Shown here: one piece after another, positions 5,219 through 26,289 of the stretch
Layout of the letters: each line of letters begins with the position of its first letter
Numbering within the stretch: position 1 is the stretch's first letter
Source: a virus
Taxonomy: Duplodnaviria; Heunggongvirae; Uroviricota; Caudoviricetes
Direction: 5' to 3' (one strand)
Length of the DNA: 64,000 bases
IMG/VR virus record: IMGVR_UViG_3300037279_000046
Notes under the pieces: model-generated
Databases searched by the model: none
What the model saw: only the letters and a program-made list of their open reading frames with translations
What the model was told of the DNA's origin: nothing
Program-made: the position numbers and the translations under genes

Positions 5219-5635
5219 CTAGCTCTTATTGGGTCTGGTGTGTTCCACCAGACCCTTTATTTTTTCAGCCACGTATTCCGGATCGTTAAGTAATCGATTC
5301 AATCCGGAGGGGTGGGGCAATTCATAAAAGTTCACACCTAGCATCTTCAATGCGGTAGCGGCAGTTTTTCCTACAGCTATAATTGGTACATCTTTGTGGT
5401 GTGCAATGATCATTGCAAGATGGTTAAGTCTACCCTTGATCTCTTTCATCGTCAGTTGTCTATTGCCTGGTGTTGGTGTATTGACCAGATTGTGCATAAT
5501 AGATATGTTTATCCCTGCCTTTTCAATCCATTCGTGCAACGTTTTACCACTACCGGTGGACATATCGAATGCTCCATTGCCCTTAGACGCTTGCGATGGA
5601 TTAGATCCAATGAATAAAGCTGTGCGCGGTTTCAC
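5219..5635 (-). CDS. uracil-DNA glycosylase superfamily protein with atypical motif 1
   Basis: HPSGLN matches the UDG family-4 motif B (HPSPLN). Motif A is GSNPS instead of GEGPG, which is more like MUG GINPG. Overall spacing matches the UDG fold. Confidence 0.55.
   Translation of the reverse strand: MKPRTALFIGSNPSQASKGNGAFDMSTGSGKTLHEWIEKAGINISIMHNLVNTPTPGNRQLTMKEIKGRLNHLAMIIAHHKDVPIIAVGKTAATALKMLGVNFYELPHPSGLNRLLNDPEYVAEKIKGLVEHTRPNKS
5231..5266 (+). terminator. Rho-independent terminator
   Basis: Hairpin GGGTCTGGTG-TGTTC-CACCAGACCC followed by TTTATTTTTT. Confidence 0.65.
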
Positions 5636-6732
5636 GATGTCCTCGGTTTAATCTGTAAATGATAAAAATCACCAACCGTAGAGCAATTGATTTCTAAGTC
5701 TAGCATGGCTGAACTATCTTCAAAGTCACTATATTTTTCTTTAAAATAAAACTCACTTATGCCTGCCTGCCACAACATTCTGATACACTTAGTGCAAGGA
5801 GATAGGGTGCAATAAAGTATACAATCACCAGTCTTAACTCCTGATCGCACTGCGTTACATAATAAGTTTGTTTCTGCGTGTATTATATAATTATATTTTT
5901 CTGGACGAGATGTGGGTAGAGAACTGTCTGGTCCACCCCTAACGAACCCATTAAAACCTTCTGCCGTAACCGCTAATGTTTTAGGGTCTATTAATAGGGC
6001 TGCAACTTTAGTATGTATGTCGTGTGACTGTGACGCTATAACTACAGCTCTATCGTGATAGATTTTAAGTTTTTTCTCTGAGATCGGGTTATTGGTTTGG
6101 TTAAACTTGTTATTTTTAACTATTCTCTGTATTTGTTCTAAAAAATGTGTTGCAGAGTAATCTAATTTCATAGTGTTGCAAGTAGCACAACTTGTGACAC
6201 AGTTTGATGTTTGGTACCCAATAGAGTTATCCAATCTATCGATTCCATTGTATTTAACTATTGTGTGTTTATTTTTTTGAATGTTGGCAGGGGAAGCGTC
6301 ACAGTAGAAACAATTTTGAAAAATAAGCCCCTTAAACTCATCTAAGGTTAGATTAAAATCATAATTTCTAGCCTTAGCATTGCCCTTATAATCTAGAAAA
6401 ATATTATTGATAGATGTCGTTTTTAGCTGTTCGTCTGTTCGAGCATATCTATTGCCACAGTGGCCACATCCACTTGAGGTGCCATTAATTAAACTTGCAA
6501 CTTTTATTGACTTAAGAACACCACATTTACACTTTACATCTACATATCGTGTTTTTTTTGATTTTAAGTTTATCTTAATGTAAGGAAGAGACATTATTGT
6601 CCATTTATTTATGACAGAATTTAAGGCAATATTCTCTGTCTTAGATGGACGTTTCATACTCTTATTTAACCTCTGCCTACAAAGGCATTTCTCTATCTTT
6701 GATTCACACGTAGGATAGATACACCGACGCAT
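5632..6732 (-). CDS. HNH endonuclease fused in frame to dCMP deaminase
   Basis: N-terminus has a Cys-rich zinc ribbon plus YNGIDRLDNSIGYQTSNCVTSCATCN (HNH). C-terminus has HAETNLL...LSPCTKC (cytidine/dCMP deaminase Zn motifs H-A-E and PCxxC). No Met separates the two halves. Confidence 0.75.
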   Translation of the reverse strand: MRRCIYPTCESKIEKCLCRQRLNKSMKRPSKTENIALNSVINKWTIMSLPYIKINLKSKKTRYVDVKCKCGVLKSIKVASLINGTSSGCGHCGNRYARTDEQLKTTSINNIFLDYKGNAKARNYDFNLTLDEFKGLIFQNCFYCDASPANIQKNKHTIVKYNGIDRLDNSIGYQTSNCVTSCATCNTMKLDYSATHFLEQIQRIVKNNKFNQTNNPISEKKLKIYHDRAVVIASQSHDIHTKVAALLIDPKTLAVTAEGFNGFVRGGPDSSLPTSRPEKYNYIIHAETNLLCNAVRSGVKTGDCILYCTLSPCTKCIRMLWQAGISEFYFKEKYSDFEDSSAMLDLEINCSTVGDFYHLQIKPRTS

Positions 6733-7538
6733 TACTTTTTCTTCTCTTCGATTGCGGGTTCTTGCGTATATAATATGTAATCTCTGTATTCAAAGACATA
6801 TCTATTATCCCGATGACGACTTGACGTTGAAACCTTATAGGTATATGAAGAGTTAAAGAACGGAGTGAAAGCTTCGCCTTTGCGAGTCATCTCGCGTTCG
6901 CATTCCATGATACATCTAACCATGTAGTCAGACTGAATGTCTTGGGCACTCATAGGAACCTTAACGATCTCGTTAATAACAACTTCTGTTTTATATCTAC
7001 CTGTGAAATCCTGAGTGGTCCAGTATTTATCTCCAACTTTAAGCTTATCGAAGAAGTCATTAAACCCCTGAAGTGTTTTAAACTTCTGACCCTTCTTGCG
7101 GTTGACCTTAGTGATGATCTTGCGTTGCTCTAACGCCTGCGAGTGGATCTTCTTGATGTCAAAGTCGCCACCCAAGAACGTTGCTTCTGCAAACTCAGGA
7201 TCAACTTCAAATCTTGTGGATTTGTAGTCAAAATCAGTCATCGACCAGATCTCTTGACCAAGAGTGCCGTTAGCAACGCGAAGCTGCTTAATATAGCCGA
7301 TACCAAACTCGTCTTCATGGATGTAGACGTAACGCTGAGCCATCTTATTGTCGGAATTTATATTTTCCGTAATCCACTCAGTCTCATCACGAGGCTTATA
7401 TCGAGCCTGTTTACGAATGAGAACGTCGCCGATCTCGAACTTCATGAATTCTTTAATCACCATCCACTTGCGGATAGGATTACTATTCATCTCGCCTTCG
7501 AGTTGCTGTTTCTGTTTATCGTCAAGCTCAACTTTCAT
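6732..7538 (-). CDS. hypothetical protein
   Basis: 268-aa ORF with ATGA-type overlap to the downstream gene; no motif recognised. Confidence 0.5.
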   Translation of the reverse strand: MKVELDDKQKQQLEGEMNSNPIRKWMVIKEFMKFEIGDVLIRKQARYKPRDETEWITENINSDNKMAQRYVYIHEDEFGIGYIKQLRVANGTLGQEIWSMTDFDYKSTRFEVDPEFAEATFLGGDFDIKKIHSQALEQRKIITKVNRKKGQKFKTLQGFNDFFDKLKVGDKYWTTQDFTGRYKTEVVINEIVKVPMSAQDIQSDYMVRCIMECEREMTRKGEAFTPFFNSSYTYKVSTSSRHRDNRYVFEYRDYILYTQEPAIEEKKK

Positions 7539-7622
7539 ACTATCTTCCTGTGTCCGATTTCATAGGTCCGCAAACTTTGCAGACAATACGAGTGCCCTGA
7601 GAATTGCCGTGCTGGTCAACTA

Positions 7623-7772
7623 CTTCTTGCCAGAATCACTGGTGAGGAGGACATTCTTTCTTCTCCACGATAATCTGGTTACCATGAGCAGATCCATCTG
7701 TAGGCTTAGCGGCAGATGCTGCTAGACGTGGAACAATGACTACTAGTGCAAAAATGACGATTAAGACAAATA
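7623..7772 (-). CDS. small membrane protein (49 aa), absent from the ORF track
   Basis: Minus strand reads GGAGGAATAATG then MDFVFVLIVIFALVVIVPRLAASAAKPTDGSAHGNQIIVEKKECPPHQ*; strong RBS and one TM helix. Confidence 0.35.
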
Positions 7773-7781
7773 CAAAGTCCA

Positions 7782-8045
7782 TTATTCCTCCGGATCGAGT
7801 TCAGTTGACGAGATACTATCTTCTTTAGCTTCTAAGTCATCGATGATGCTCTGTGCACCAACAAATACACGATGTGGATCGTGAGTCACCTTCTTAAGGC
7901 GTTTCATTTTAACTTTTTGCTTGATCTTTCCACGGATAGGACAATTAAACTCTACTTCAACTTCCACGATCTCTTCAATTGTCGGGTCTTCGAATACATG
8001 CTTCTTTTTGTTTTTAGCACCCTTGGGTCTAGCCATTATTTCCAC
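7782..8045 (-). CDS. hypothetical basic protein
   Basis: 87-aa ORF, Lys-rich. Confidence 0.45.
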   Translation of the reverse strand: MEIMARPKGAKNKKKHVFEDPTIEEIVEVEVEFNCPIRGKIKQKVKMKRLKKVTHDPHRVFVGAQSIIDDLEAKEDSISSTELDPEE

Positions 8046-8572
8046 TCCGTATCAATAATCTGTTGCAATGCCATTGTGTATGCCTTGATGGGCCCTGGTA
8101 CTTTGCGCGTATACGCGTACGAACACCATTCTTTGTACGATCCTTGAATAATCAAGGTTGTATATATGTTAATGGGGGTAAGGACCTGTGATACAAACGC
8201 ATCTGCGCCATCTGCTTGATAGGCTCTGGGATTGATAAGAAGGGCAGCAGTTGTGCGAGAAATATCATTAGAGATCGCTTGTGCTGTAACGACGTCGCTT
8301 CCTCCAAGCTGAGCTGCCGAAGGGATATATGCTTCTGACTCGACATCTGCATTCTCCGTGTTGATGATCTTAAATGCAAACTTAGATAGGTCTAGCTGAA
8401 CAAACAGTGGACACTTCATAACTACAGTGAGTGACCCCAAGTCTTCAAGAACAGTAGGGTATTTACCAAAGAAGAACTCTTGATCTATATCTCTTAGTTT
8501 CTGAGTGGTATTGCAGCTATCGATAAGGGCAACGAAGCCCTTATCGAGAACTGGTATCTTATTGAGTAGCAT
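8036..8572 (-). CDS. hypothetical protein
   Basis: 178-aa ORF, overlapping start/stop with neighbours. Confidence 0.5.
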   Translation of the reverse strand: MLLNKIPVLDKGFVALIDSCNTTQKLRDIDQEFFFGKYPTVLEDLGSLTVVMKCPLFVQLDLSKFAFKIINTENADVESEAYIPSAAQLGGSDVVTAQAISNDISRTTAALLINPRAYQADGADAFVSQVLTPINIYTTLIIQGSYKEWCSYAYTRKVPGPIKAYTMALQQIIDTEWK

Positions 8573-9051
8573 TACAGGTCCTCGTCTTCCTCTTCGACCT
8601 TAGCTTCTTCTTCTTCTTCTTCTTTTTTCTGAGCAAAAGGATTATTCTCGTTGTCGTCTTCAGCAATACCTGCACGACAAGTGTAATCCTTAACGTCGTC
8701 AAACACGCCATCGAGCATCGACTCAGTAATGATGTCTTGGAAGTGAGCTTCGATATAATCAACCGTGTTCTCGTCCAAGATCTTCATAGCAGCAGCCAGA
8801 TCTTTTTGCAAGATAACAACTTTAGCATGATGCTGGTGATCTTTCCACATGATGCCGACAGTCTCACACATCTCTTCAAATGTGAAGACGCCGCGGATCG
8901 TAGAGGGTAAGAACTTAGCTTTAGAGCGATCGCCTGAGCTAACAGCCACGAGGAATGATTCTGATTTAAGGGAAGAGAGATCCATCGTCTCTAATTCACC
9001 AATGAAATCATCTCCGGTCTTAACTGGCAAGTTCATATTTGGATCAGACAT
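8572..9051 (-). CDS. hypothetical protein with poly-Glu C-terminal tail
   Basis: 159 aa; the (GAA)n run at about 8596-8640 encodes KKEEEEEEAKVEEEDEDL. Confidence 0.5.
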   Translation of the reverse strand: MSDPNMNLPVKTGDDFIGELETMDLSSLKSESFLVAVSSGDRSKAKFLPSTIRGVFTFEEMCETVGIMWKDHQHHAKVVILQKDLAAAMKILDENTVDYIEAHFQDIITESMLDGVFDDVKDYTCRAGIAEDDNENNPFAQKKEEEEEEAKVEEEDEDL

Positions 9052-9245
9052 TTATCACCTCTGGATTATATATTATTTCGGATCTTTTAACTCACCGTAT
9101 GTACGTGGACGCACAGTATACAGGGCAGTATAGCGAAAGCTATCTACCGATAAAGTCTTGATCTTGCCCTTAGAGTCTTGAATCTTAATGAAAGGATCTG
9201 TAGCTTGAAGTCGATTAGCTCTATCTCTAGGTGCAGGCTTAATCT

Positions 9246-9506
9246 CTAAAACAGTGAAGTGGCTCTTAGCTGAACCAGTTCAGCTTGTTCTGCTGGAGTC
9301 AACGGCTGCATGAGCTGGCCAAGCAGTGTCGTAATTTGTGACACAGTTAGAGTACTCGTACCAGTTGTAAGCTGCGGCATACCAAGGCCACCGATATTAT
9401 TGTTGTTGCCGCCAGGAATCGGCTGATTCTGGTTCAACATATCGTTTAGATCTTTTGTAAGCTGATCTATTGGATCGTCTTTTTTATCGAATGGCCACAT
9501 ACTCAC
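9246..9506 (-). CDS. hypothetical protein
   Basis: 86-aa ORF, Asn/Gln/Thr-rich, overlaps the upstream gene end. Confidence 0.35.
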   Translation of the reverse strand: MSMWPFDKKDDPIDQLTKDLNDMLNQNQPIPGGNNNNIGGLGMPQLTTGTSTLTVSQITTLLGQLMQPLTPAEQAELVQLRATSLF

Positions 9507-10300
9507 ACCTCACCGAGCATCTTTTTTACCATCTCTTCGTTCTTCTCATAGATGTGTAAGCTGTGCACAGTGTGAGTGTAATGTCCTTTAGTGAGGTTAG
9601 GATACACATCTTTAAGTTCTGCAACCATCTTATCCATGAGACCGCAGAACCACGGAAGGTCGTATACAAGACCCAGAGTGAGATCGTTCGAGCGCATGAC
9701 GACAGATAGATGTAACTGGTCGTTGCGGATCAAGAAGTTGCCATGCATCGTGCAAGTCTGATCCTTATTGCCGACCCACTGATGTTCTGGAAGAGAGAAA
9801 CGTAGGATAGCCTGACGAGTATCTTTATCAGCAAGAAGAGACTGCTTCGCCCACTCCCAAGGAGTGCGCATAACGTTTTCTTCTACTAGGAAGTGCGCAG
9901 TTTCTCCGTTTTCGTAGACACCTTCGTGGACAACTGTTTGGCGCTCAAAATGAGATCCGCTTGACTTTTTAGACCAGATAAGATGGCCGTACGCGCTGTT
10001 AACAGTGCCGTCAGGGTTAGCGAGACTGAGCCAAAATTTTGAGGCTCGTCCGAAATCCTCTGCAGAATTCGTGCAGGAATCATATAGCTCCACTTCTTTC
10101 CGGGTGTATGAAGCAATAGTTTCGTTGCGCTTTGGATCTCGAGTAACGATAGGATCATCAGTAGGTCCCAAAACCCGGAATGAGTAGTCGAGTACTTCTC
10201 TGCAAGGTTGCCCGCGTGGCGCGCTCTTGACGTCAGGGTTGTAGTAGACATCCGCGAGGGTACCGAGATAGGCTTCCGAGACATTTTTATATACTTTCAT
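9503..10300 (-). CDS. thymidylate-synthase-fold pyrimidine hydroxymethylase/methylase homolog; predicted dCMP hydroxymethylase-like (Asn to Asp specificity switch)
   Basis: Aligns to the ThyA core: QTCTMHGNF vs PCHAFFQF (catalytic Cys), MRSNDLTLGLVYDLPWF vs QRSCDVFLGLPFNIASY. The PFN Asn is replaced by Asp, as at Asp179 of T4 gp42. Confidence 0.75.
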   Translation of the reverse strand: MKVYKNVSEAYLGTLADVYYNPDVKSAPRGQPCREVLDYSFRVLGPTDDPIVTRDPKRNETIASYTRKEVELYDSCTNSAEDFGRASKFWLSLANPDGTVNSAYGHLIWSKKSSGSHFERQTVVHEGVYENGETAHFLVEENVMRTPWEWAKQSLLADKDTRQAILRFSLPEHQWVGNKDQTCTMHGNFLIRNDQLHLSVVMRSNDLTLGLVYDLPWFCGLMDKMVAELKDVYPNLTKGHYTHTVHSLHIYEKNEEMVKKMLGEV

Positions 10301-10326
10301 GCGATCTCCTTACGGAGGCGATTGTA

Positions 10327-11013
10327 CTAATACTCTTTGGTCATTAGTTCTAATTCAGCCGAGTAAATGTTTGAGCGAAGAAGCTCGACGAAGAATACAC
10401 TCTGGTGTGACTCAATCTCAAAACCCTTCTTGATGTATTTAGTGAGGCGACGAATGCTAACCCCACGTGGAACGGGATTGAAGCAGATCTTCTTCTGAGT
10501 GCAGTCTTCCATAGAGCCTGCAACTACATAAAGAACACCTAGATTGGGATCGATCGCCATGGAGCAAGCGCGAATGTCAAAACGAGAGATAAGGTGGGCA
10601 GGCGAAGTGTGCTCTACTCCGTAGATCAAGTTTACTTTCTGTGAACCTAGATGACCGTATGCGCACATAGGATTAGTAAAGTCAAAGTGTGCGGCATTAA
10701 GTTTAGCAAACTCCTGAGCAAGTTCTTTGGTCTGGAAGTATAGATCGATATCGTCGTACGTGAGTATGAGTCCAGCTAGCTGTTTAGCAACGATGCTCAT
10801 TACGTATGAACCAGAGATAAGTGTGCCAAACGGAAACTTAACTCCGGTGTTTATGTTTATAGAACCTTTGCGCACTTCTACGTTAGCATCGTAGTCATCC
10901 ATCAGAAGAGCGCTGCCGAGATGTGACAGTTGCTCTTTATATAGAGCTTCACCCTTTTTGATATCTTGAACAAGAGGAATAAAGAACTTAGGGTTGATTA
11001 AGAAATCGCTCAT
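10327..11013 (-). CDS. hypothetical protein
   Basis: 228-aa ORF with a GS...DxD-like segment (LGSALLMDDYDAN, DIDLYF); a nucleotidyltransferase fold is possible but not established. Confidence 0.5.
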   Translation of the reverse strand: MSDFLINPKFFIPLVQDIKKGEALYKEQLSHLGSALLMDDYDANVEVRKGSININTGVKFPFGTLISGSYVMSIVAKQLAGLILTYDDIDLYFQTKELAQEFAKLNAAHFDFTNPMCAYGHLGSQKVNLIYGVEHTSPAHLISRFDIRACSMAIDPNLGVLYVVAGSMEDCTQKKICFNPVPRGVSIRRLTKYIKKGFEIESHQSVFFVELLRSNIYSAELELMTKEY

Positions 11014-14499: not shown

Positions 14500-15021
14500 T
14501 TAGTGAGTGGTTCCGCTACCGTCGTCTTTGCCACCCTTATGAACAGTAAACTTACCCACGACGCTAGATTTAGAAGGCGGAGTAGGTACTGAAGGCTTAG
14601 GTGCAACAAGTACCATTTCAGCCATGAAGTCAGACAGGAACATCTCAGTGACTACGCCAGCTGGATCCATAGTGGTAATCTTAGGATCATGTCCGTCTGC
14701 AAGAATGCTTTTGAGAAGATCGCTCTTCTCTTGTTCGATCTCTTTTATCGCAGAATTAAGAGAGTTCTTGTATTTACCGTCAAGACCGTTCTTCTGCGGT
14801 TGATCCAGTTGACCGATAAGGTCTAACTGCTCATTGGTCAAATCTTTGACACGCTTCATTCGTTTCTCGATCTCAGAGCGAGTAACTTTCTTTGGCTCAG
14901 CTGGCTTACCGCTCTTATTTTTAACTGGGCGACTGCCGATATACATGATGGCCGCAACTACGCCAGCTGCACCAGTTAATAATCCAAGGAAATAGAAAGT
15001 TAATGCAGTCACCATAGTCAT
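14500..15021 (-). CDS. membrane-anchored coiled-coil protein
   Basis: N-terminal TM helix (ALTFYFLGLLTGAAGVVAAIMYIG) followed by a charged helical region. Confidence 0.5.
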   Translation of the reverse strand: MTMVTALTFYFLGLLTGAAGVVAAIMYIGSRPVKNKSGKPAEPKKVTRSEIEKRMKRVKDLTNEQLDLIGQLDQPQKNGLDGKYKNSLNSAIKEIEQEKSDLLKSILADGHDPKITTMDPAGVVTEMFLSDFMAEMVLVAPKPSVPTPPSKSSVVGKFTVHKGGKDDGSGTTH

Positions 15022-15521
15022 TTGCTTCTCCCGCGCAATTTTAGATACTTCTTATGCTTGCTGACAACTAGGTTCTTCTTCACCGGTCCCAGTTGGTCGA
15101 TGTATAGTTTACCGTTGAGGTGATCGACCTCGTGTTGAACCGCTGCAGCCGTAAACCCTTTATACTCCTGCGTTTGCTCTTCAAAGTTCTCATCAAGATA
15201 CTTGAGTGTGAGGACTTGAGCTCGCTCTGTATCAGAGAAGGTTCCAGGAATAGATAGGCAACCTTCTTGGAATGGAAGCATCTCACCTATCGCAGTTATC
15301 TCAGGGTTGATATAGAGTTTAGATTCATCAGTCTCTAAGTTCTTCAAGATAAAGAATCGCTTAGAGATGCCTACTTGATTTGCTGCAAGACCTGCGCCTT
15401 CAGCCTCATTCATTGTGGTGATCATTTCTGGGACTAGGGACTTAACGTAATCTAACTCTTCACGAGTAACAGGCTCTGTGACCTTGCGTAGAACAGGGTC
15501 AGTCATCATTGCTATCTTCAT
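15018..15521 (-). CDS. def: peptide deformylase
   Basis: Motifs GLAANQVG, EGCLSIPG and QHEVDHLNG (the three PDF motifs). Start set at the internal Met (MKIAMMTDPVLRKV), which has a GGAGG RBS 7 nt upstream. Confidence 0.85.
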   Translation of the reverse strand: MKIAMMTDPVLRKVTEPVTREELDYVKSLVPEMITTMNEAEGAGLAANQVGISKRFFILKNLETDESKLYINPEITAIGEMLPFQEGCLSIPGTFSDTERAQVLTLKYLDENFEEQTQEYKGFTAAAVQHEVDHLNGKLYIDQLGPVKKNLVVSKHKKYLKLRGRSK

Positions 15522-15756
15522 CGCAAGCCTCCTGTTTATGTTTATCATCAGGCAGGGCAGGACCATAGTAGAAGATCGGGCTTCCACCAGCAATATACTT
15601 CTCCTGAGCTCCAGGAAGATGGATCTCCATGTATCCGCGGACAATGTTAAGAACTTCACCCCACTGTAAATCGTGGTCGCAGCACATCTCCATGATGATG
15701 TCTTCAAGGTCTAGGGTGATGTCACCCATTGGACGAAGCTTCTTTTTCTTGGGCAT
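15499..15756 (-). CDS. hypothetical acidic protein
   Basis: 85-aa ORF whose 3' end overlaps the def start by about 23 nt. Confidence 0.4.
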   Translation of the reverse strand: MPKKKKLRPMGDITLDLEDIIMEMCCDHDLQWGEVLNIVRGYMEIHLPGAQEKYIAGGSPIFYYGPALPDDKHKQEACDEDSNDD

Positions 15757-16396: not shown

Positions 16397-16470
16397 TGGC
16401 AAACCGCCCAGGAATCGAACCCGGTCTAAGAGGTTTGGAATCTCTTGTGCTACCGTTACACCAGCGGAAT
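16397..16470 (-). tRNA. tRNA-Trp (anticodon CCA) candidate
   Basis: Minus-strand read has D-arm GTGT/GCAC, anticodon arm AGAGA-TTCCAAA-CCTCT, T-arm CCGGG-TTCGATT-CCTGG and an encoded CCA. The acceptor stem has two U-U mismatches. Confidence 0.5.
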
Positions 16471-16674: not shown

Positions 16675-17238
16675 TTATACTTTCTTGTATCCCGGAAGTT
16701 TCTTGCCTTTTACACGGCAGAGTTTGAGTGCCTTTTCGATGCTGGCACTAGAGAATGGATTAGCGACGGATTTCATGTTCTTCCTGAGCATCTGTGCCCA
16801 GTAGAACTCTGCGAAAGGAATAGTAGACTTGTCGAAGCCACCCAACTCACGTACCATCCAAGCGAGTGAACGGTAAGGGTTATCAGACATACAGCGGATG
16901 TCAGCAGGCAGATCATACGGACTATGGGGACCTTTACCGAAGGCGTCATATAAGAAGACATACTTCATCTTCTTCATCTTTGCCCAGAATTTCTTCTTGC
17001 CCATCTTAGAGTAGTCGGCTTTTACTTCAACCACTACATGACGGTGGCCACATTCCCACATAGCTCTAACATAGTGATGGTGGTCGATTAGATACATCAA
17101 TCCACCAGGTCCTACGATGACTGGAACTTTCTTCTCAGAGTTATGTTCTCCGCGTTTTACCTTGGCGATCTTGTCATCAACATCTTTGAATCCTAGAGAG
17201 AACTGGGTAGGTTTTAGATCTAGAAGTAGTTTCTTCAT
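16675..17238 (-). CDS. ParB/sulfiredoxin-fold nuclease-like protein
   Basis: KIAKVKRGE...PVIVGPGG...YLIDHHH resembles the ParB N-terminal nuclease/NTP-binding motif (DGHHR-like). Confidence 0.6.
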   Translation of the reverse strand: MKKLLLDLKPTQFSLGFKDVDDKIAKVKRGEHNSEKKVPVIVGPGGLMYLIDHHHYVRAMWECGHRHVVVEVKADYSKMGKKKFWAKMKKMKYVFLYDAFGKGPHSPYDLPADIRCMSDNPYRSLAWMVRELGGFDKSTIPFAEFYWAQMLRKNMKSVANPFSSASIEKALKLCRVKGKKLPGYKKV

Positions 17239-17498
17239 TACCAGCCTCTTTCGTATGCAAGACCACTTGCTGTTCTGATGTTAAGCTTGCGAAGCAGTGT
17301 CAACACTTTCATTTGATGGTATTCGTCCATAGAACCGACATAGCCTGGGCGCTCACCGTAGTAAGACCACCAACTATGATCTTCGTCATCCCAGTAATAG
17401 GGATACCAACAATCAGTCTCCTGCTCTACAATCTGTAGCCAGTACTCATTGTGCTCTGATCTATTGTATTTATCTGTTCGATCACTGCGCCAGCTCAT
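17238..17498 (-). CDS. hypothetical Trp/Tyr-rich small protein
   Basis: 86-aa ORF, WYPYYWDDEDHSWWSYYGERPGY. Confidence 0.4.
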   Translation of the reverse strand: MSWRSDRTDKYNRSEHNEYWLQIVEQETDCWYPYYWDDEDHSWWSYYGERPGYVGSMDEYHQMKVLTLLRKLNIRTASGLAYERGW

Positions 17499-17510
17499 CT
17501 AAGCATTATA

Positions 17511-17541
17511 CAGTGAGAAAGGCCCCGGCTTGGAACCGGGG
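17511..17541 (-). terminator. putative Rho-independent terminator (weak U tract)
   Basis: Minus-strand hairpin CCCCGG-TTCCAAG-CCGGGG followed by CCTTTCTC, immediately 3' of the 17550..17783 gene. Confidence 0.35.
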
Positions 17542-17549
17542 TCGGGAAC

Positions 17550-17783
17550 TTAGTACTTGAATACGTAGAACTCGTTATCGCTTGCTGCTGTCTTTTTAAC
17601 GGCATACTGTGTGATCATGGGGGCTTCAGCTGTAATGTGAATGCTGTACCCTTCCTTTGCAACGATCTCAATATCAACAAGATCTGCTTTAGCTAGGTTC
17701 TCAACCAAGGGCACCGGCAAACAGACAGTGCGGGTTGCCAGATAACGAGAGCTTGAACGGGTCTTATATACGATGGTCGCCAT
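17550..17783 (-). CDS. hypothetical protein
   Basis: 77-aa ORF. Confidence 0.45.
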   Translation of the reverse strand: MATIVYKTRSSSRYLATRTVCLPVPLVENLAKADLVDIEIVAKEGYSIHITAEAPMITQYAVKKTAASDNEFYVFKY

Positions 17784-17784
17784 A

Positions 17785-19212
17785 TTACACCTTTACAGGA
17801 TAAGCACGAGCACGCACTTGATCCAGAGTTGATTGGTTAGTCAACACACCGTTCAAGAAGACCTGCTCAAGCAGTCCACCTTTTTCGTCAGCAGCAGATA
17901 CTTGATCTGTTGTGACGTAACGACCGTTGATGAAATCAAGACGCATTCTACCCTTGTGCGATTTCTTGCCCGAGTCAGTAATAGGGTCCTTAACGATGTC
18001 GCGCTCTTCTCCATTAACTTCTACGTAAGTGGTCTTAACAGCGAAGCCTTGGTCGTCACGGCTGTGCGATTGCAACAGCAATCCACCAACACCGATAACG
18101 AGATTAGAAGACGCAAATCCCATGCCCTTTAGACGCGCGAGGATGCACTCGTAACGGTCAAAATACATTCCGTCGCCGTAGATCAGGCCTACTTTAGGAT
18201 TCAATTCTTGGAAGCCTAATGCGTTCGTTGTCGTACCGAACTGGCGAGCCAACAGACGCATAGCACCGAGGTTCTCAGCAGAACCAGCAGGAGCAGACGG
18301 GTTTCCACAGATGATGAGCTCTGGGTCACCAGAGTCCGGGCGGAATACCACTTTGCCGTCACGAGCCATGATGCGCTTGTAAAGTACCTGAGTGAAGTTC
18401 TCAAGAACATTCCACAGGTTATAGGTATCAGACACGATAGAGACGATGCCGGTAGGGTAAGTGTTGAGCATGTGCTCAAACGCCTTCAACTCATGTTCCT
18501 GACCGTACGAACACATAACTGAGTGCTCAGATGCAGGGACAGAAGCACCGATAAGGCCAGTCGCAGCGTAGTTCTCCATCAAGAACTTAACAGCCGGAAC
18601 GGTATCTGTTCCACGGAAGTTGATCAAGTGAGCAGCACCAGAGATAGCCGCAGTCTCCTCAGACGAGCAACCACGGTATCCGAAGTCATGGACAGCCCAA
18701 TCGCAGTGGAGACGGTTGCCTACAGTTTCATCCGCGTATGTGTCTACAAGGTTACGCAACTTCATAGAGTACGAACCAACAGTTGTCGGGTTCCATACTT
18801 TAAGAACGAGCGACTCAAAGAAGCCAACTGTCCAAGCGAAGTCAGGATGAGTATTGGTCATCGTGAGAAGAACGTTCTTAACGGGCAGAACAGTTCCTTC
18901 TGGAACAGCTTTGATCTCCAAGGGGATATAACCAAGGTCTGCCAATGCGTGCATCTTTTCAAAGATGTGGCGCGGGGTAGGTCCGAGAATCGATTCACGT
19001 ACCTGCAAGAACTCGTTCACCATTGGGTGAGTGATCTTCTGTGCCAAGTAGTTCTTCAAGATAGGCTGAAGCCCATTGAAGAGCGTGAACGGAATCTTCT
19101 TGTCGGAGCGAGCAACGAGATAGGCGTAGGCCTTAGTGATCCCCTCTGGGAACTGCTCCATGTGCCCCATCTTATATACGTCAGTGCAAAGTAATACGTT
19201 ATCGTTAATCAT
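17785..19212 (-). CDS. nadV: nicotinamide phosphoribosyltransferase (NAMPT/NadV family)
   Basis: 475 aa with DFGYRG, GTDTV and FRPDSGDP, the hallmark NAMPT/NAPRT type II PRT motifs. Confidence 0.85.
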   Translation of the reverse strand: MINDNVLLCTDVYKMGHMEQFPEGITKAYAYLVARSDKKIPFTLFNGLQPILKNYLAQKITHPMVNEFLQVRESILGPTPRHIFEKMHALADLGYIPLEIKAVPEGTVLPVKNVLLTMTNTHPDFAWTVGFFESLVLKVWNPTTVGSYSMKLRNLVDTYADETVGNRLHCDWAVHDFGYRGCSSEETAAISGAAHLINFRGTDTVPAVKFLMENYAATGLIGASVPASEHSVMCSYGQEHELKAFEHMLNTYPTGIVSIVSDTYNLWNVLENFTQVLYKRIMARDGKVVFRPDSGDPELIICGNPSAPAGSAENLGAMRLLARQFGTTTNALGFQELNPKVGLIYGDGMYFDRYECILARLKGMGFASSNLVIGVGGLLLQSHSRDDQGFAVKTTYVEVNGEERDIVKDPITDSGKKSHKGRMRLDFINGRYVTTDQVSAADEKGGLLEQVFLNGVLTNQSTLDQVRARAYPVKV

Positions 19213-19220
19213 GTTTCTCC

Positions 19221-19463
19221 TTAAAAGTTAAATGTAGCTGTTACGTAGAAGCGGACTTCGCCCTCGTCTTCTTCTACTGAGTAGTCGAACGTTGTACCAT
19301 CATCAAAATGTTCTGCGAGAGCATCAACCTTAGCCTGCGCAAGAGTGTGCTCCACAGACATATCAACCCCTGGGATCTTCTTCACAACGTGAATTGGTTT
19401 CTTCTTCTTAGGGTCGATGGTATCGCTCACGCTTCCACCATATCTGGATCGCAGACGATCCAA
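19221..19463 (-). CDS. hypothetical protein
   Basis: 80-aa ORF between nadV and the macro gene; overlaps the macro gene 3' end. Confidence 0.4.
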   Translation of the reverse strand: MDRLRSRYGGSVSDTIDPKKKKPIHVVKKIPGVDMSVEHTLAQAKVDALAEHFDDGTTFDYSVEEDEGEVRFYVTATFNF

Positions 19464-19936
19464 TTGATTCTTGGATAATCTTTTAAGAGGATTTCAAGGA
19501 TAAGTTCTGAGTCTTTCCAAGGTACAGCGAACAGACCAGAGTTAAACTTATTAGAGTAGACGTCGATCTGTGGGTACGTGTCGCTTGGGTGGGCGAGATA
19601 GATCTTACGTAAGAGATCACGGAGAGCTAGAGTTGTATTGATCTTGATCTCTTCTACGCCGTCTTTCTTAGGTCCGTAGTCATGAGATGTAACGATCCAG
19701 CCGACCCAGTGAGCTTCGGATTCAGGGAACGATGATAGACCAGCAAGACCTACAGCCGTTCCACGCTGCATGTTAGCAGACTCGCAGAACATCTTGTAGT
19801 CGAGAAAGCTCTGAAGATACTTCTCTTTGAAAGGCTTGGCAATGCCAGAACCCCAGACACCCTGCGAGTTGCAGGCATGAATGATTACACTCTCACGAGG
19901 AGCGTCAAAGAGACTCATCTTCTTGTGGGTTACCAT
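19427..19936 (-). CDS. macro domain protein (ADP-ribose-binding or -processing)
   Basis: VIIHACNSQGVWGSGIAKPF matches the macro-domain N-x6-GGGVxxAI-type motif. Confidence 0.7.
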   Translation of the reverse strand: MVTHKKMSLFDAPRESVIIHACNSQGVWGSGIAKPFKEKYLQSFLDYKMFCESANMQRGTAVGLAGLSSFPESEAHWVGWIVTSHDYGPKKDGVEEIKINTTLALRDLLRKIYLAHPSDTYPQIDVYSNKFNSGLFAVPWKDSELILEILLKDYPRINWIVCDPDMVEA

Positions 19937-20754
19937 ACTTTATATCCTTCCGGGTTCCTGAGCAGAGAGTTCGTGGTGTGAATATCACGGATCCCTGCAT
20001 CAAATAATACCTGCTTCCCTTTTGAGAATAGTCCGTGTGAGACTGCTAGGTCGATTGGTCCTGTCTTATATTCTTTAAGTGCTTCAGCTACTTTGATGAA
20101 GGTCATCCCGCCGTCGCAGATGTCGTCGATGATTAGGACACTCTTGCCGTAGAGATCCTGGTGAGATGTATTAACTTTAAGTCCAGTGATCTCGCCCGTC
20201 TGCTGGTTGCGAACCTTCTCGCACCAGATGAACTGCTTACCAGTGGTCTTAGCGTAGCGCTCAGCTGCGCCTTTGTCTGGGTAACATACAAAGTCATAAC
20301 CGATGGTGTTAAACAGAGTCTGATGAAACTCTTTGGGAGTTGTAGACTCCATTGGAAAGACGAGATCAGACTTGGAGTGTGGGTCAAAAGCCTCGATGCG
20401 CGTGATACCTGCGTTATATAGGATCTCTGTGAATGTCTTGAGCGCGAAGCTCAACTTATTGTTTACTTCCTTATCTTGACGAGCGTAAGGAAGATAAGGA
20501 CATACAAGATCAACACTGGTATCGAAAACGTCATAGCATAACTGCGCCACTTGGCATACTTGGATTAACTCAGCTTCATTCTCAAACAGCCATAGTATAT
20601 ATGTGACGCTGTTCGGATCCATCTTTGACTCATCAATCTTCCAGACCTGGGAAGTTCCATCTGGAAAGATGGTTATCGTAAAACTTACTTCTTCGCCGTC
20701 GCTGATGAGCTTAATCATGTGTTCTCTCCCAGTAAGAAATCTAAGTGGCGCCAC
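19930..20754 (-). CDS. prs: ribose-phosphate pyrophosphokinase family (PRPP synthetase or ADPR-pyrophosphokinase-like)
   Basis: PRPP-binding loop VLIIDDICDGGMTF plus LPYARQDK. Confidence 0.85.
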   Translation of the reverse strand: MAPLRFLTGREHMIKLISDGEEVSFTITIFPDGTSQVWKIDESKMDPNSVTYILWLFENEAELIQVCQVAQLCYDVFDTSVDLVCPYLPYARQDKEVNNKLSFALKTFTEILYNAGITRIEAFDPHSKSDLVFPMESTTPKEFHQTLFNTIGYDFVCYPDKGAAERYAKTTGKQFIWCEKVRNQQTGEITGLKVNTSHQDLYGKSVLIIDDICDGGMTFIKVAEALKEYKTGPIDLAVSHGLFSKGKQVLFDAGIRDIHTTNSLLRNPEGYKVW

Positions 20755-21215
20755 ATAGCATCGTGCTCGCCGTCTTTCTTGAGCATCAGCTTGAAGTGCG
20801 GATACTCTTTCTTGTACATGTCAAGCTGTTTCGCTTGATCTAGTACAGACCGTTCTACGTTTGCTATACGGTCAGCCAGCTTCAGGGTCGTAGCCTCTCT
20901 AGAGGCTTGAATCTTAGGGTAGGTCTTTTCGTGACGCTCTTTGCGGTTCTTACCAGGCTCGTTTGTTACTCGGTGAACTAGATCTGCTACATGCCTACCG
21001 AATGTAATCTCGATCTGGAACACTGTTGCATCTGTGTCTTCGACTACATCATGCAACCAGGCTGCGACCTGAAGGTCCTCGCTATCAAACTTGAAGCGGC
21101 GCAAGACTTCAGCTACGGCAGCGAGATGCTCTGTGTAGGGAGAATTCTCCCCGTATTTCTGGTCTTTGTGCTTTGCTGCTGCAAATGCCGCTGCTGCTTG
21201 AATAGCGAGGCTCAT
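20715..21215 (-). CDS. HD-domain phosphohydrolase, SpoT/Mesh1-like (p)ppGpp-hydrolase-type
   Basis: KDQKYGENSPYTEHLAAVA...AAWLHDVVEDT matches the RelA/SpoT HD hydrolase pattern. Confidence 0.6.
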   Translation of the reverse strand: MSLAIQAAAAFAAAKHKDQKYGENSPYTEHLAAVAEVLRRFKFDSEDLQVAAWLHDVVEDTDATVFQIEITFGRHVADLVHRVTNEPGKNRKERHEKTYPKIQASREATTLKLADRIANVERSVLDQAKQLDMYKKEYPHFKLMLKKDGEHDAMWRHLDFLLGENT

Positions 21216-21339
21216 ATTAGTCTTTCTTCTGTGTTGCCGCTTCTTTAATCAACTTGATACCAACGTATAGTACGAGAGAAGCTACGCCAAGGATCAATAC
21301 TCCGATACCGATATCAACTAATGCGATCATATTTTCTCC

Positions 21340-21386
21340 TTAAATAAGTCTATCTAGAAAAGGCACCACCCGGAGGTGATGCCTTC
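21340..21386 (-). terminator. Rho-independent terminator
   Basis: Minus-strand hairpin AAGGCATCACCTCC/GGGTGGTGCCTT followed by TTTTCTAGA, just 3' of the SPFH gene. Confidence 0.5.
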
Positions 21387-21396
21387 AAAGATATAC

Positions 21397-22650
21397 TTAG
21401 TTGTCTTCAGACTTGTTTGCTGCAGCAGGCACTTTAGTGCGTGGAGCTTTAGCAGGTTGATCTTTGTTCATGCGATCGTTCAAATCCATGAAGGACTTAA
21501 GACCGATTGCGTCGAAGGGGTTCATTGCCGATTGACCGTTAGATCCACCGCCGATTACCATCATGCCTGGGAACTGAACACCAGCAAGCTCATGTGCTAC
21601 ACCGATGCGAGTCTCTTTGTCGATCGTCGCACGCTCAAGGGGAGTAAGACCTGCTTGAACTTTGAGGCGGTTAACTTCAGCAAGAGCTTTACCGTTCGTT
21701 ACTTCAGCCGCAGCATCTTGTTCAGCTTGTTTGCGTTTCAGCTGAGATACTTCGAACTCTTTCTGAGCGATAGTGACTTCTTTGATCTTCTCAACTTCTT
21801 GCTTAGCTTTCTCAATCGCGATCTGAGCATTACCTTGTTCGCGTGCAGTGATCGCATCTTGCTTAGCTTTTTCAGCGTTAGCTTTAGCGACAACTTTCAT
21901 CTGCTCAGCTTCTTTTTTCTTCTGGATCAGAGCATCGATAGTCTGGTCGAAGTCGATGTCTTTGATAACGAACTGGATGATGGTTACGTTATAAGCTTTG
22001 AGCGGAGAGATCTTGCGAACAACTGGCTGTCCAGCTTTGTCAAGCTTGATGTTGACTTCACGAGTCACGAACTCATTGCCGTCTGCATCTTTCTCTTTGA
22101 ATTCCTTAGCTTCAGTCTCGTAGATCCCGTTCTTTACTTGATCTTCCACAAGTGAAGTGAACTCAGAGCGACGAGTAGAGTACGACTCTTCAGCGCGCAT
22201 CAGAGTAGCCGTCTGCATCAAGGCTTCAGCAACAGTCTGACGAATCAGATCGTGCTTGACGCGCTCGTAAGACTTGAAGTCTTTATGCAGGAGCTTCTGA
22301 GTCTCAGGGTCAGAAGGTAGACGGAATTTGATGCCGCCAGACACCTTCGCAGTACCGCCGTCGTTGAAGCGAATGTCGATCGTGTCTGACTCAGCACCTT
22401 TGCCGCCGTCAAGATCTGACTTCGAGAAGTAGTACATGTCCGACACGTGGTAAGTTGTTACGTTACCGAAGAGCTTCAGATACGTACCTGACTCATTGTG
22501 AACAGTTACATCACCAGTAACAGCTGCCTGTTTAATCTGATAATAGCCTTGGTCATTCGTCGTGAACACTTCACGTCCGACCGTTGCCAGGATAAGAACT
22601 GCGACCAATCCGCCTACGGCGAGACCAATCAATTTAACTCGTGCGTCCAT
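21397..22650 (-). CDS. SPFH/band-7 (prohibitin/HflK-like) membrane protein
   Basis: N-terminal TM helix, SPFH core, and a long EAEQ..AKA..AKQ coiled coil typical of HflK/stomatin/prohibitin. Confidence 0.8.
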   Translation of the reverse strand: MDARVKLIGLAVGGLVAVLILATVGREVFTTNDQGYYQIKQAAVTGDVTVHNESGTYLKLFGNVTTYHVSDMYYFSKSDLDGGKGAESDTIDIRFNDGGTAKVSGGIKFRLPSDPETQKLLHKDFKSYERVKHDLIRQTVAEALMQTATLMRAEESYSTRRSEFTSLVEDQVKNGIYETEAKEFKEKDADGNEFVTREVNIKLDKAGQPVVRKISPLKAYNVTIIQFVIKDIDFDQTIDALIQKKKEAEQMKVVAKANAEKAKQDAITAREQGNAQIAIEKAKQEVEKIKEVTIAQKEFEVSQLKRKQAEQDAAAEVTNGKALAEVNRLKVQAGLTPLERATIDKETRIGVAHELAGVQFPGMMVIGGGSNGQSAMNPFDAIGLKSFMDLNDRMNKDQPAKAPRTKVPAAANKSEDN

Positions 22651-22716
22651 CTATAAAACTCCTTTGTATGAAAAGGCGTTAGCGTTCAAATTTAATTACA
22701 ATCAGGACAGGTTCTA

Positions 22717-22974
22717 CTATCTCCAAACAGTCCATGTCACTCGCTTCTGTTCAGCAGGTGGAAGATGTTCAGTATAGAAGGCGACCATAGATTCGTATGT
22801 TCTAGATAATAGACCTTGAGCGGCAATATAGTCACAGCAATCAGACGCCTCTTGAATAGTCATGTTGCAAGAAGATGCAATCTTGTTCATTCCTGGTTTA
22901 GCTTTCCCGTGCTTACTAATGATGCCTTTAAGGTAGGCCTGAACGATATTAACTTTTACTTGACAGATAGCCAT
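22717..22974 (-). CDS. hypothetical protein
   Basis: 85-aa ORF. Confidence 0.4.
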   Translation of the reverse strand: MAICQVKVNIVQAYLKGIISKHGKAKPGMNKIASSCNMTIQEASDCCDYIAAQGLLSRTYESMVAFYTEHLPPAEQKRVTWTVWR

Positions 22975-23270: not shown

Positions 23271-23347
23271 TGGTACTCGAGGTGAGACTTGAACTCACAC
23301 TGTGCAGGGTTTAAGTCTGCTGCCTCTGCCAGTTGGGGTAGTCAAGC
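23271..23347 (-). tRNA. tRNA-like gene, anticodon loop CUUAAAC (anticodon UAA if canonical)
   Basis: Acceptor GCTTGAC/CTCGAGT (6 of 7 bp), perfect T-arm GTGAG-TTCAAGT-CTCAC, A73 and encoded CCA. The D-arm is poorly paired and the variable loop is 5 nt. Confidence 0.4.
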
Positions 23348-23438: not shown

Positions 23439-23534
23439 TGGAGGAAGGTATCCGATTCGCACGGATGAAACCCAGTGTTAGTGGGTTTACCAGGGTTCAA
23501 GCCTGGCGCAATAATCTATCTCTGCCAACCTTCC
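23439..23534 (-). tRNA. tRNA-Ser (anticodon UGA), type II
   Basis: Acceptor GGAAGGT/ACCTTCC, 3-bp D-stem, anticodon arm CCAGG-CTTGAAC-CCTGG, variable arm AAACCCA-loop-TGGGTTT, T-arm ATCCG-TGCGAAT-CGGAT and encoded CCA. Confidence 0.6.
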
Positions 23535-24504: not shown

Positions 24505-24580
24505 TGGCTGACGAGACAGGGTTCGAACCTGTGACCTAACCGTTAACAGCGGTTTGCTCTACCAACTGAGCTACACGTCA
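24505..24580 (-). tRNA. tRNA-Asn (anticodon GUU)
   Basis: Canonical cloverleaf: TA-GCTC-AGTTGGTA-GAGC, anticodon arm AACCG-CTGTTAA-CGGTT, T-arm ACAGG-TTCGAAC-CCTGT, encoded CCA. Confidence 0.8.
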
Positions 24581-25565: not shown

Positions 25566-25997
25566 TCATAACAACTTTAAGTGTTTTGTAAGAGGATCGA
25601 TGACTTCGGGATAGTCAGGTCCAATAGCTACAGCAGTATATGTTGGAACACCATCGAACTCTGTAAGTCCTGCATCTTGAATTAGAGAGCAGAGAATCCC
25701 AGCAGCTTGCGCCTTATTAAAGATGTCGCGAAGCTCTTCTTCAGAATCTACTGATACGCAGATCTTTGTGAACTTGCCGTCAAGCCACTCTTGAATGCGC
25801 TTGAAACCAAGAGTATCTGCACTTAGGAATAAGCCACCCTCATCTGCGAAATCTGTATCTGGATCACTAGGAATAGAACGCGACTCCAAAAGATTAACAA
25901 TAACTGCCATTGATGCATGAGCACCTTGAGCAACCATCTTGCCCTTGCGCATGTTTAGATCTTTACGTAAGATGATGACCTGCTTTGGTGCCGACAT
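25566..25997 (-). CDS. peptidyl-tRNA hydrolase, PTH2 family
   Basis: KQVIILRKDLNMRKGKMVAQGAHAS ... TEFDGVPTYTAVAIGP matches the Pth2 pattern. Start set at the internal Met MSAPK. Confidence 0.75.
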   Translation of the reverse strand: MSAPKQVIILRKDLNMRKGKMVAQGAHASMAVIVNLLESRSIPSDPDTDFADEGGLFLSADTLGFKRIQEWLDGKFTKICVSVDSEEELRDIFNKAQAAGILCSLIQDAGLTEFDGVPTYTAVAIGPDYPEVIDPLTKHLKLL

Positions 25998-25998
25998 A

Positions 25999-26289
25999 TT
26001 ATTCCTTATAGTAAGCGTTCGTCTTATCTGTGTGATCCGTGATATCAACCACATGATTGATAGATGGATCAAAGTTCATGATGTGGTTCTTCACCAGCAT
26101 GTTGAGCGTGTACTTAGCGCCAGCACAACCTCGACATCCGCCGATCATCTTTACATAAGCGATAACGAAGTAATGTTCAGCATTGTCGCCACGATTTATC
26201 TCTGTGATCTCAACACGACCACGATGTTGACCAAGTAGAGTATTTACACTCTCGTCAAGCATCGCTTGTACTTCTTGAACTGTTTTCAT
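25999..26289 (-). CDS. Nfu/NifU-C-type Fe-S cluster scaffold-like protein
   Basis: MIGGCRGCAGAKYTL matches the Nfu GGCxxC...TL motif. Confidence 0.6.
   Translation of the reverse strand: MKTVQEVQAMLDESVNTLLGQHRGRVEITEINRGDNAEHYFVIAYVKMIGGCRGCAGAKYTLNMLVKNHIMNFDPSINHVVDITDHTDKTNAYYKE

Follow-up and report, generated by a model that had tools for sequence, protein, structure and literature searches.

What is a macro-domain protein doing between two enzymes that look like parts of a pathway for rebuilding NAD+? The question is raised by a locus in a 64,000-nucleotide stretch of DNA (hereafter, the window) from a Caudoviricetes virus, IMG/VR record IMGVR_UViG_3300037279_000046, in which a short macro gene lies between a PRS-like and a NAMPT-like gene. 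A first-pass annotation, made from the letters alone, had offered three roles for the macro protein (supply of ADP-ribose [ADPR] to the flanking enzymes, reversal of ADP-ribosylation-based host defense, or degradation of ADPR-derived immune signals) and had presented the gene as an anti-defense device distinct from NAD+ resynthesis. The evidence below leads us to a different framing, in which the macro protein extends NAD+ resynthesis: it is probably an ADPR-1''-phosphate phosphatase feeding the ADP-ribose pyrophosphokinase Adps, so that NAD+ reconstitution would reach to RES-type phosphorolysis while its activity against ordinary NADases is kept.

A system of this kind is already known from experiment. 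Osterman et al. (bioRxiv, January 2026, Sorek laboratory; 10.64898/2026.01.28.702374) describe NARP1-AP, which consists of Adps-Adpp-Namat. According to these authors, the RES-domain defense protein aRES cleaves NAD+ to nicotinamide plus ADPR-1''-phosphate (hereafter ADPR-1P), a product that NARP1 (Adps and Namat) cannot use; a macro gene is found in or beside the operon in 15% of NARP1-carrying phages; aRES is overcome by the Adps-macro-Namat operon from Vibrio phage Gary; and Adpp, whose nearest characterized homolog is Poa1p, converts ADPR-1P to ADPR when purified (10.64898/2026.01.28.702374). What is new in the window is a divergent example, with a macro protein of the Poa1p clade and a NAMPT-like partner that lacks the selectivity clamp of Namat.

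The gene in question is the following.

19427..19936, minus strand: macro-domain gene, 169 aa, Poa1p clade (ATG-to-TGA open reading frame [ORF]; Pfam Macro above cut-off; Poa1p as best PDB match)

Pfam Macro (PF01661) matches residues 19–144 at E 7.8e-6; the score, 26.3 bits, exceeds the gathering threshold of 22. The top relative of solved structure in a single-sequence search is yeast Poa1p (E 7.8e-10). When a profile of the family (22 relatives) is compared with the PDB, Poa1p is reached at E 1.9e-20, DarG at 8.6e-8, and BT1257 at 1e-3. An AlphaFold2 model built on the 22-relative alignment has the three-layer alpha/beta/alpha macro fold, with a mean pLDDT of 94.2 and a pTM of 0.89; searched with Foldseek, it returns five Poa1p chains in the first ranks (E 2e-13 to 1e-11, TM 0.76–0.80; best match E 2e-13, TM 0.77–0.79), followed by DarG, BT1257, and TARG1 (TM 0.68–0.83). 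At E<=1e-3 the model has 221 PDB matches. Natural macrodomain proteins make up the first 17 of those listed; further down, the listed matches also take in designed serine hydrolases and a single unrelated complex. In the protein database there are 258 homologs, and an identical protein is encoded on ~175-kb metagenomic contigs, where the JGI pipeline names it 'ADP-ribose 1''-phosphate phosphatase'. Macro-domain identity of the gene is therefore confirmed well beyond chance. The first-pass annotation was right about the fold (the searches could have pointed to a non-macro protein), and the family, which it had left for checking, is Poa1p-like by sequence, profile, and fold. We predict, from sequence and model together, that the protein is a Poa1p-like ADP-ribose-1''-phosphate phosphatase and the functional counterpart of Adpp.

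The residues expected to carry catalysis are conserved. H20 and N23 are invariant across the 22 relatives and align both to His23/Asn26 of Poa1p and to H24/N27 of Gary Adpp. The plasmid lists of the NARP1-AP preprint give Adpp H24A and N27A, along with Adps K192A and Namat H243A, as inactivating mutants, and alanine mutants of Gary Adpp H24 or N27 abolish anti-aRES activity (10.64898/2026.01.28.702374). The key residues of Poa1p, as listed in PMC12846349 (citing Chiu et al. 2021), are His23, Asn26, Ser30, and Gly33, a set to which we added Phe152 from PDB mutant entries. His23, Asn26, and Phe152 are kept in the window and invariant in its family (H20, N23, and F136). The likeness to yeast Poa1p (YBR022W, PDB 6LFQ-6LFU) extends to the G-x-W-G-x-G-I-A loop and to the NSG[IL]F-VPW loop: a loop, YSNKFNSGLF..W, is invariant in the window family, and in it NSGLF-VPW corresponds to NSGIF-VPW of Poa1p (NSGIFGVPW), including F152. 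Overall identity to Poa1p is ~25%, and the window protein is encoded by a phage and coupled in an operon to NAD+ rebuilding, whereas Poa1p is tied to tRNA splicing.

The macro gene belongs to a cluster of five genes on the minus strand, in the order HD_4, PRS-like, macro, 69-aa ORF, NAMPT-like. The other four are listed here.

20715..21215, minus strand: HD_4 (RelA/SpoT-hydrolase, Mesh1-like) gene, 166 aa, first of the cluster (Pfam HD_4, E 2.8e-14)

19930..20718, minus strand: PRS-like gene, 262 aa, predicted Adps (ATG at 20718; Pribosyltran, Pribosyltran_N, and Pribosyl_synth; phrog_619)

19221..19430, minus strand: 69-aa ORF with a GTG start (called as a gene on the identical contigs)

17785..19212, minus strand: NAMPT-like gene, 475 aa (NAPRTase and NAMPT_N; phrog_448)

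Stop and start codons overlap at each of the first three junctions, by 4 nt between HD_4 and the Adps-like gene (ATGA), by 7 nt between the PRS-like and macro genes (ATGGTAA), and by 4 nt between the macro gene and the 69-aa ORF (GTGA); the 69-aa ORF is separated from the NAMPT-like gene by an 8-nt spacer with a Shine-Dalgarno sequence, AAGGAG. The cluster is a translationally coupled operon. Because a promoter and terminator scan of positions 17000–22800 gave a site count not above that of shuffled sequence, its boundaries are drawn from the gene overlaps only. The first-pass annotation had thus placed the macro gene correctly with respect to its PRS-like and NAMPT-like flanks and had overlooked both the 69-aa ORF and the HD_4 gene at the head of the operon. 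In the preprint's operational definition, a locus counts as NARP1-AP if a protein with PF01661, PF14519, or PF20016 is encoded no more than two genes away from Adps and Namat (10.64898/2026.01.28.702374); the locus falls within this definition, with the macro gene between the PRS-like and NAMPT-like genes and one small ORF away from the latter.

For the PRS-like partner, the assignment as Adps, the enzyme that makes pyrophosphorylated ADPR (ADPR-PP), is a prediction from several alignments. The protein scores under every NCBIfam Prs cut-off, is only a distant relative of the archaeal class III Prs structures, and is 29–30% identical to the verified Adps of SPbetaL1 and Gary; its K168 aligns with the catalytic K192 of Gary Adps. 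It is also 56% identical to the Adps of a related locus, L001, whose partner is a canonical Namat.

The NAMPT-like partner is a more complicated case. It is 41% identical to SPbetaL1 Namat and keeps the catalytic His of Gary Namat (H243) as H230, and we predict that it completes the pathway as a nicotinamide (ADP-)ribosyl transferase. Namat has, however, been defined by an adenine 'selectivity clamp' made up of a residue in a loop (R40) and a helix motif, GS-X-Phi-X-Phi-X-Phi-TRD, whose X positions are aromatic (F392 and Y396 in SPbetaL1); both the use of ADPR-PP and anti-defense activity are reported to require the aromatic motif (PMC12774641). Compared at the diagnostic sites with the Namat proteins of SPbetaL1, Gary, and the related loci L001, L013, L015, and L017 (the Namat set), and with human and Xcc Nampt, the window protein looks as follows.

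Helix motif: GS[FY]TYQY.TRD in the Namat set; GGLLLQSHSRD in the window; GGGLLQKLTRD in human and GGALLQKVDRD in Xcc Nampt

HDF motif: HDFS[AM]RG in the Namat set; HDFGYRG in the window; HDFGYRG in human and HDFGARG in Xcc Nampt

8-residue Namat insertion: present in the Namat set; absent from the window protein and from human and Xcc Nampt

SCL loop: longer in the Namat set; shorter in the window protein and in human and Xcc Nampt

The window motif is that of a whole clade, since GG[LI]LLQxH[SNT]RD or a close variant is common to all 120 closest homologs (58–91% identity). Across IMG/VR, genes of this GGLLLQ clade lie directly downstream of an Adps-like gene, as canonical Namat genes do, whereas Adps is missing beside canonical Nampt genes (SGGGLLQK.DRD), which sometimes come with NMNAT. 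The clade carries a Namat-type 'IICGxPxAP' insertion that is missing from Nampt, and in a neighbor-joining tree it is sister to Namat, with Nampt basal. (Adps adjacency was read from the IMG/VR neighborhoods; the 'noAdps' labels in the tree are false, owing to a stricter tblastn threshold.) Our reading is that the NAMPT-like protein represents an Adps-coupled, Namat-like clade in which adenine recognition, if there is any, would lie outside the published motif; His383 and Lys38 are candidates for contacting the adenine. The phage is uncultivated, and in its nearest cultured relatives the NAMPT-like protein is <43% identical and the macro protein <32%.

Does the linkage of macro, Adps, and NAMPT-like genes recur? 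Loci of relatives were gathered from IMG/VR, JGI metagenomes, GTDB genomes, and a protein-contig index, and their neighbors were scored by tblastn. This gave 88 non-redundant macro genes, 48 of which were assessable (i.e., had >=2.5 kb of flank on both sides). Adps-like and NAMPT-like genes are both within the flank (<=8 kb) at 25 of the 48 loci and both within 3.5 kb at 18; NMNAT is nearby at six. The first-pass annotation had proposed a survey of this synteny, and the intervening order that it had in mind, Adps-macro-NAMPT, occurs at 10 of the 48, with Adps-Namat-macro in others. Since NARP1 is present in ~4% of phages (10.64898/2026.01.28.702374), this is a very large enrichment. Five loci with macro proteins 54–72% identical to that of the window (L130, L131, L132, L215, and L216) have the order Adps-macro-NAMPT and the identical 7-nt overlap in different phage backbones.

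Taken together, these observations suggest the following course of events. A host aRES would phosphorolyze NAD+ to nicotinamide and ADPR-1P, a dead end for Adps; the Poa1p-type macro phosphatase would remove the 1''-phosphate, turning ADPR-1P into ADPR; the PRS-like Adps would pyrophosphorylate ADPR to ADPR-PP; and the NAMPT-like enzyme would couple nicotinamide to ADPR-PP, giving back NAD+. The operon would still counter ordinary NADase defenses (TIR, SIR2, and SEFIR), which yield ADPR directly. The substrate of the macro protein, its role against aRES, and the use of ADPR-PP by a clamp-less NAMPT-like enzyme are the steps that we infer. Supply of ADPR to the flanking enzymes, the first of the roles proposed by the first-pass annotation, is thereby favored, and the mechanism has been shown experimentally for the same arrangement in phage Gary; the source of the substrate, RES-domain NAD+ phosphorolysis, is an addition to that proposal. 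Circumstantial support for a link to aRES comes from the published aRES list, which has 80 Bacteroidetes entries, including Cytophagales and Saprospiraceae (10.64898/2026.01.28.702374); relatives of the window phage are found in bins of both groups.

Compared with NARP1-AP of phage Gary (where Adpp is KNV71_gp137), the window operon is likewise tightly packed, with the macro gene between the PRS-like and NAMPT-like genes; the macro fold is likewise related to Poa1p; and Adpp H24/N27, the Adps Lys, and the Namat His are all conserved. It differs in that the NAMPT-like protein is without the clamp motif and in having the additional HD_4 and 69-aa genes.

Several findings weigh against the proposed role, and they concern the macro protein, its partner, and the loci of its clade. 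Searched with BLASTP, the window macro matches Gary Adpp at E 0.16, which is not significant, and profile-profile and fold comparisons were used for this reason. When the window family was aligned by hhalign with 11 published NARP1-associated macro proteins, the probability was 97.9% and the identity only 18%. Two of the four published key residues of Poa1p are replaced (Ser30 by V27 and Gly33 by S30); active Gary Adpp is likewise without Ser30 and Gly33 (it has R31 and R34). The aromatic clamp signature of Namat is not present in the NAMPT-like protein, and our confidence in an ADPR-PP-based downstream chemistry is lowered by this, not removed. Finally, ~40% of the loci of the macro clade are without a nearby NAD+ module, and some of these are near RNA ligase genes.

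The profile of the 11 published macro proteins has BT1257 (8.5e-23), SCO6735, and TARG1 as its best PDB matches, ahead of Poa1p (~1e-10), whereas the profile of the window family puts Poa1p far ahead of BT1257. The published set has the loop GCGLAGGDW where the window family has YSNKFNSGLF..W, and a text search of Table S1 of the preprint found no protein with FNSG, NSGL, WGSGIA, or HACN (the positive control, GCGLAGGDW, was found 33 times). By BLASTP, hhalign, best PDB matches, and the motifs in Table S1, the window macro is not an ortholog of the tested Adpp and falls in a different macro clade. In the window, then, the Adpp slot is occupied by a second macro lineage, which is the Poa1p clade proper. 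Occupation of the same slot by two lineages argues for strong and repeated selection for a way out of the ADPR-1P dead end. This clade is thinly represented among cultured phages: window-type macro proteins occur in 28 records, all <=38% identical, as against 2,747 records with Gary-type macro proteins, and a near-identity DNA search with the 5-kb locus among 50,697 phage records gave no match.

Other functions for the macro protein have to be weighed against ADPR-1P dephosphorylation. One, also suggested by the first-pass annotation, is that of a de-ADP-ribosylase reversing host modification of phage DNA, RNA, or proteins (e.g., by DarT-type toxins), for which ADP-ribose would be at most a by-product. 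By structure, DarG and TARG1 rank next after Poa1p (TM 0.70–0.83), an NCBIfam search gives a partial match to DarG (residues 16–60), and NADAR, another family of ADP-ribose hydrolases, recurs in related operons. We nevertheless regard this function as rather unlikely, because, with the family profile, the E value for Poa1p is 12 orders of magnitude better than that for DarG and because the tight coupling to Adps would go unexplained, whereas the tested homologous arrangement explains it; the resemblance to DarG and TARG1 is a generic one of fold, and nothing specific speaks for reversal of ADP-ribosylation. The macrodomains of DarG, TARG1, and BT1257 do share a structural subclass with the window macro (TM 0.68–0.83), but with much weaker sequence support, and the window has neither a DarT partner nor a toxin-antitoxin context. 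A DarG-type antitoxin was considered as a candidate in its own right and rejected (the score, 25.3 bits, is below the cut-off of 250; the match covers only the shared N-terminal loop, at 16–60; and there is no DarT-like neighbor). Degradation of ADPR-derived immune signals, such as the 2'/3' cyclic ADPR (cADPR) of Thoeris, was the remaining suggestion of the first-pass annotation, and we consider it very improbable. Its only precedent is a general one, the RyDEP protein of mycobacteriophage DyoEdafos, a RyR-domain glycosidase encoded within a NARP1 operon. Like the macro protein as we see it, RyDEP is an embedded accessory enzyme that turns an ADPR derivative into ADPR for Adps and Namat; its substrate, however, is 2'/3' cADPR and its fold is unrelated, so that the activity belongs to another family. 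Cleavage of the glycosidic bond between the riboses of cADPR isomers is not reported for any macro domain, and the nearest characterized relatives of the window macro are 1''-phosphatases and deacylases.

Metabolic housekeeping would be a third function, i.e., clearing or recycling of ADPR-1''-phosphate, or of the product of ADPR-1'',2''-cyclic phosphate, formed by decay of the labile Adps product ADPR-PP or by Tpt1-type RNA repair. The native role of Poa1p is in the by-product pathway of tRNA splicing (10.64898/2026.01.28.702374), in L007, Av-05, and L038 the macro gene has an RNA ligase gene nearby and no NARP genes, and phiM12 has both RNA ligase and NAD genes nearby. An RNA ligase gene is found within the flank at 8 of the 48 loci, but at only three of these without the Adps and NAMPT-like pair, as against the 25 loci that have the pair; a scan of bacterial genomes found the macro clade in only four contigs of metagenome-assembled genomes (MAGs), resembling binned phage DNA, and so gave no cellular context for RNA repair; and the ADPR-PP decay route is a suggestion of this analysis, with no reported observation behind it. 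A tblastn search of the 64-kb window (~110 kb of the phage genome lies outside it) found no RNA ligase, NMNAT, Nudix, or NADAR homolog. We think a housekeeping role quite unlikely. Much the same holds for the possibility that the operon works on phosphoribosyl pyrophosphate (PRPP), with the clamp-less NAMPT-like protein a true Nampt, the PRS-like protein making PRPP, nicotinamide mononucleotide as the product, and the macro protein merely freeing ADPR for ribose-5-phosphate or acting independently. The Nampt-type motifs GGLLLQSHSRD and HDFGYRG, the short SCL loop, and the missing 8-residue insertion would all fit a true Nampt, the NAMPT-like protein passes the NCBIfam PRK09198 cut-off, and macro genes of the clade are also found inside NMNAT-Nudix/Nampt (NARP2-like) operons, for example in L012. 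Yet the 64-kb window has no NMNAT or Nudix homolog, the PRS-like protein is below all Prs cut-offs and 56% identical to an Adps paired with a canonical Namat, and the NAMPT-like protein has the Namat-type insertion and comes from a clade whose members all occur directly downstream of Adps-like genes and which has Namat as its sister, unlike the Adps-free canonical Nampt genes. These observations leave little room for a PRPP-based operon.

A further possibility, which we think doubtful though deserving of some weight, is that the operon is a distinct branch of NAD+ reconstitution. A Poa1p-proper macro would here have been recruited independently of Adpp and combined with an Adps-linked NAMPT-like clade that never gained the aromatic clamp and that reads ADPR-PP in a new manner or uses another intermediate; the Mesh1-like HD_4 protein, joined by NADAR in relatives, would bring in further substrates, such as NADP(H) or ADP-ribosylated nucleic acids, so that many derivatives of ADPR or NAD would end up as NAD+.

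If, as in the ADPR-1P phosphatase reading that we prefer, a clamp-less, Adps-coupled NAMPT-like enzyme does use ADPR-PP, the published sequence signature of Namat would have to be revised; the locus in any case exposes an Adps-linked NAMPT-like clade as a misfit to that signature and the Poa1p clade as an independent recruitment. It also extends the reach of NARP1 plus phosphatase from cultured Vibrio, Pseudomonas, and Acinetobacter phages to large uncultivated environmental phages, possibly infecting Bacteroidota.

The other phage module for NAD+ restoration, NARP2 (NadV Nampt and NatV NMNAT-Nudix, from Vibrio phage KVP40), resembles the window operon in that the NAMPT-like protein keeps Nampt-type motifs, and relatives of the window macro are found inside NMNAT-Nudix/Nampt operons (L012 and L014). 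Unlike NARP2, the window has a coupled PRS-like gene and no NMNAT or Nudix found in it. As a separate observation, L012 contains at 6727–10370 the order NMNAT-Nudix, macro, NADAR, Nampt, a NARP2-like operon with a Poa1p-clade macro, and similar cases are L014, L162, and L169; a NARP2-associated macro phosphatase is not described in the preprint (10.64898/2026.01.28.702374). Genes for NADAR, which are ADP-ribose-processing hydrolases, recur beside Adps and macro genes (L132, 3752–4237; L012, 8488–9000; and L028, L036, L134, and L137–L142).

The best PDB matches of the HD_4 protein are human and Drosophila MESH1. MESH1 is a ppGpp hydrolase that acts also as an NADPH phosphatase, and the HD_4 protein might convert NADP(H) or another pyrophosphorylated nucleotide. 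In no fewer than seven related loci (L001/L009, L132, L136, L141, L142, L215, and L216), the gene is conserved in its place upstream of Adps; HD_4 is not mentioned in the NARP1-AP preprint (10.64898/2026.01.28.702374). Compared with L001/L009, the operon is a mosaic: HD_4, Adps, macro, and the Band_7 gene beyond the operon are 56–69% identical, and the NAMPT-like protein, of canonical Namat type in L001, is only 40% identical, which implies a gene swap inside the operon. The 69-aa ORF has no Pfam, PHROG, or NCBIfam match. Its conservation was considered and rejected, since the slot between the macro and NAMPT-like genes differs among relatives, which hold unrelated 40-aa or 64-aa ORFs there or nothing; the slot is a variable hotspot that could house small anti-defense proteins.

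Two genes bracket the operon, and they hold the same positions in the related phages L132 and L216.

16675-17238, minus strand: ParB-like nuclease gene (ParBc_2)

21397-22650, minus strand: SPFH/Band_7 gene

Further out, the locus is flanked by four tRNA genes and two genes for protein-synthesis functions, from which it appears that the phage invests in translation upkeep.

16397-16470, minus strand: tRNA-Trp (CCA)

23271-23347, minus strand: tRNA-Leu (TAA)

23439-23534, minus strand: tRNA-Ser (TGA)

24505-24580, minus strand: tRNA-Asn (GTT)

25566-26072: peptidyl-tRNA hydrolase PTH2 gene

15018-15707: peptide deformylase gene (gene calls on the identical contigs give a shorter 167-aa product, ~15018-15521)

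Genes for nucleotide metabolism, DNA ligation, and proteolysis are found elsewhere in the window.

52582-54471, plus strand: class II (B12-dependent) ribonucleotide reductase

9503-10300, minus strand: thymidylate synthase

5632-6732, minus strand: dCMP deaminase

43863-45011, minus strand: ATP-dependent DNA ligase

36582-37412, plus strand: Clp protease

The ribonucleotide reductase is closest to that of a Maribacter phage; a freshwater Caudoviricetes contig and Maribacter phage Panino encode reductases with 60–61% identity to it. A Bacteroidota host is hinted at by this closeness taken together with the relatives that were binned in MAGs of Cytophagales and Saprospiraceae. At the left end of the window, positions 1–2000 have a GC content of 0.50 and a GC skew of +0.26, clearly above the rest (GC ~0.39–0.49), and the ORFs of this end lie on the plus strand, whereas those in most of the window do not.

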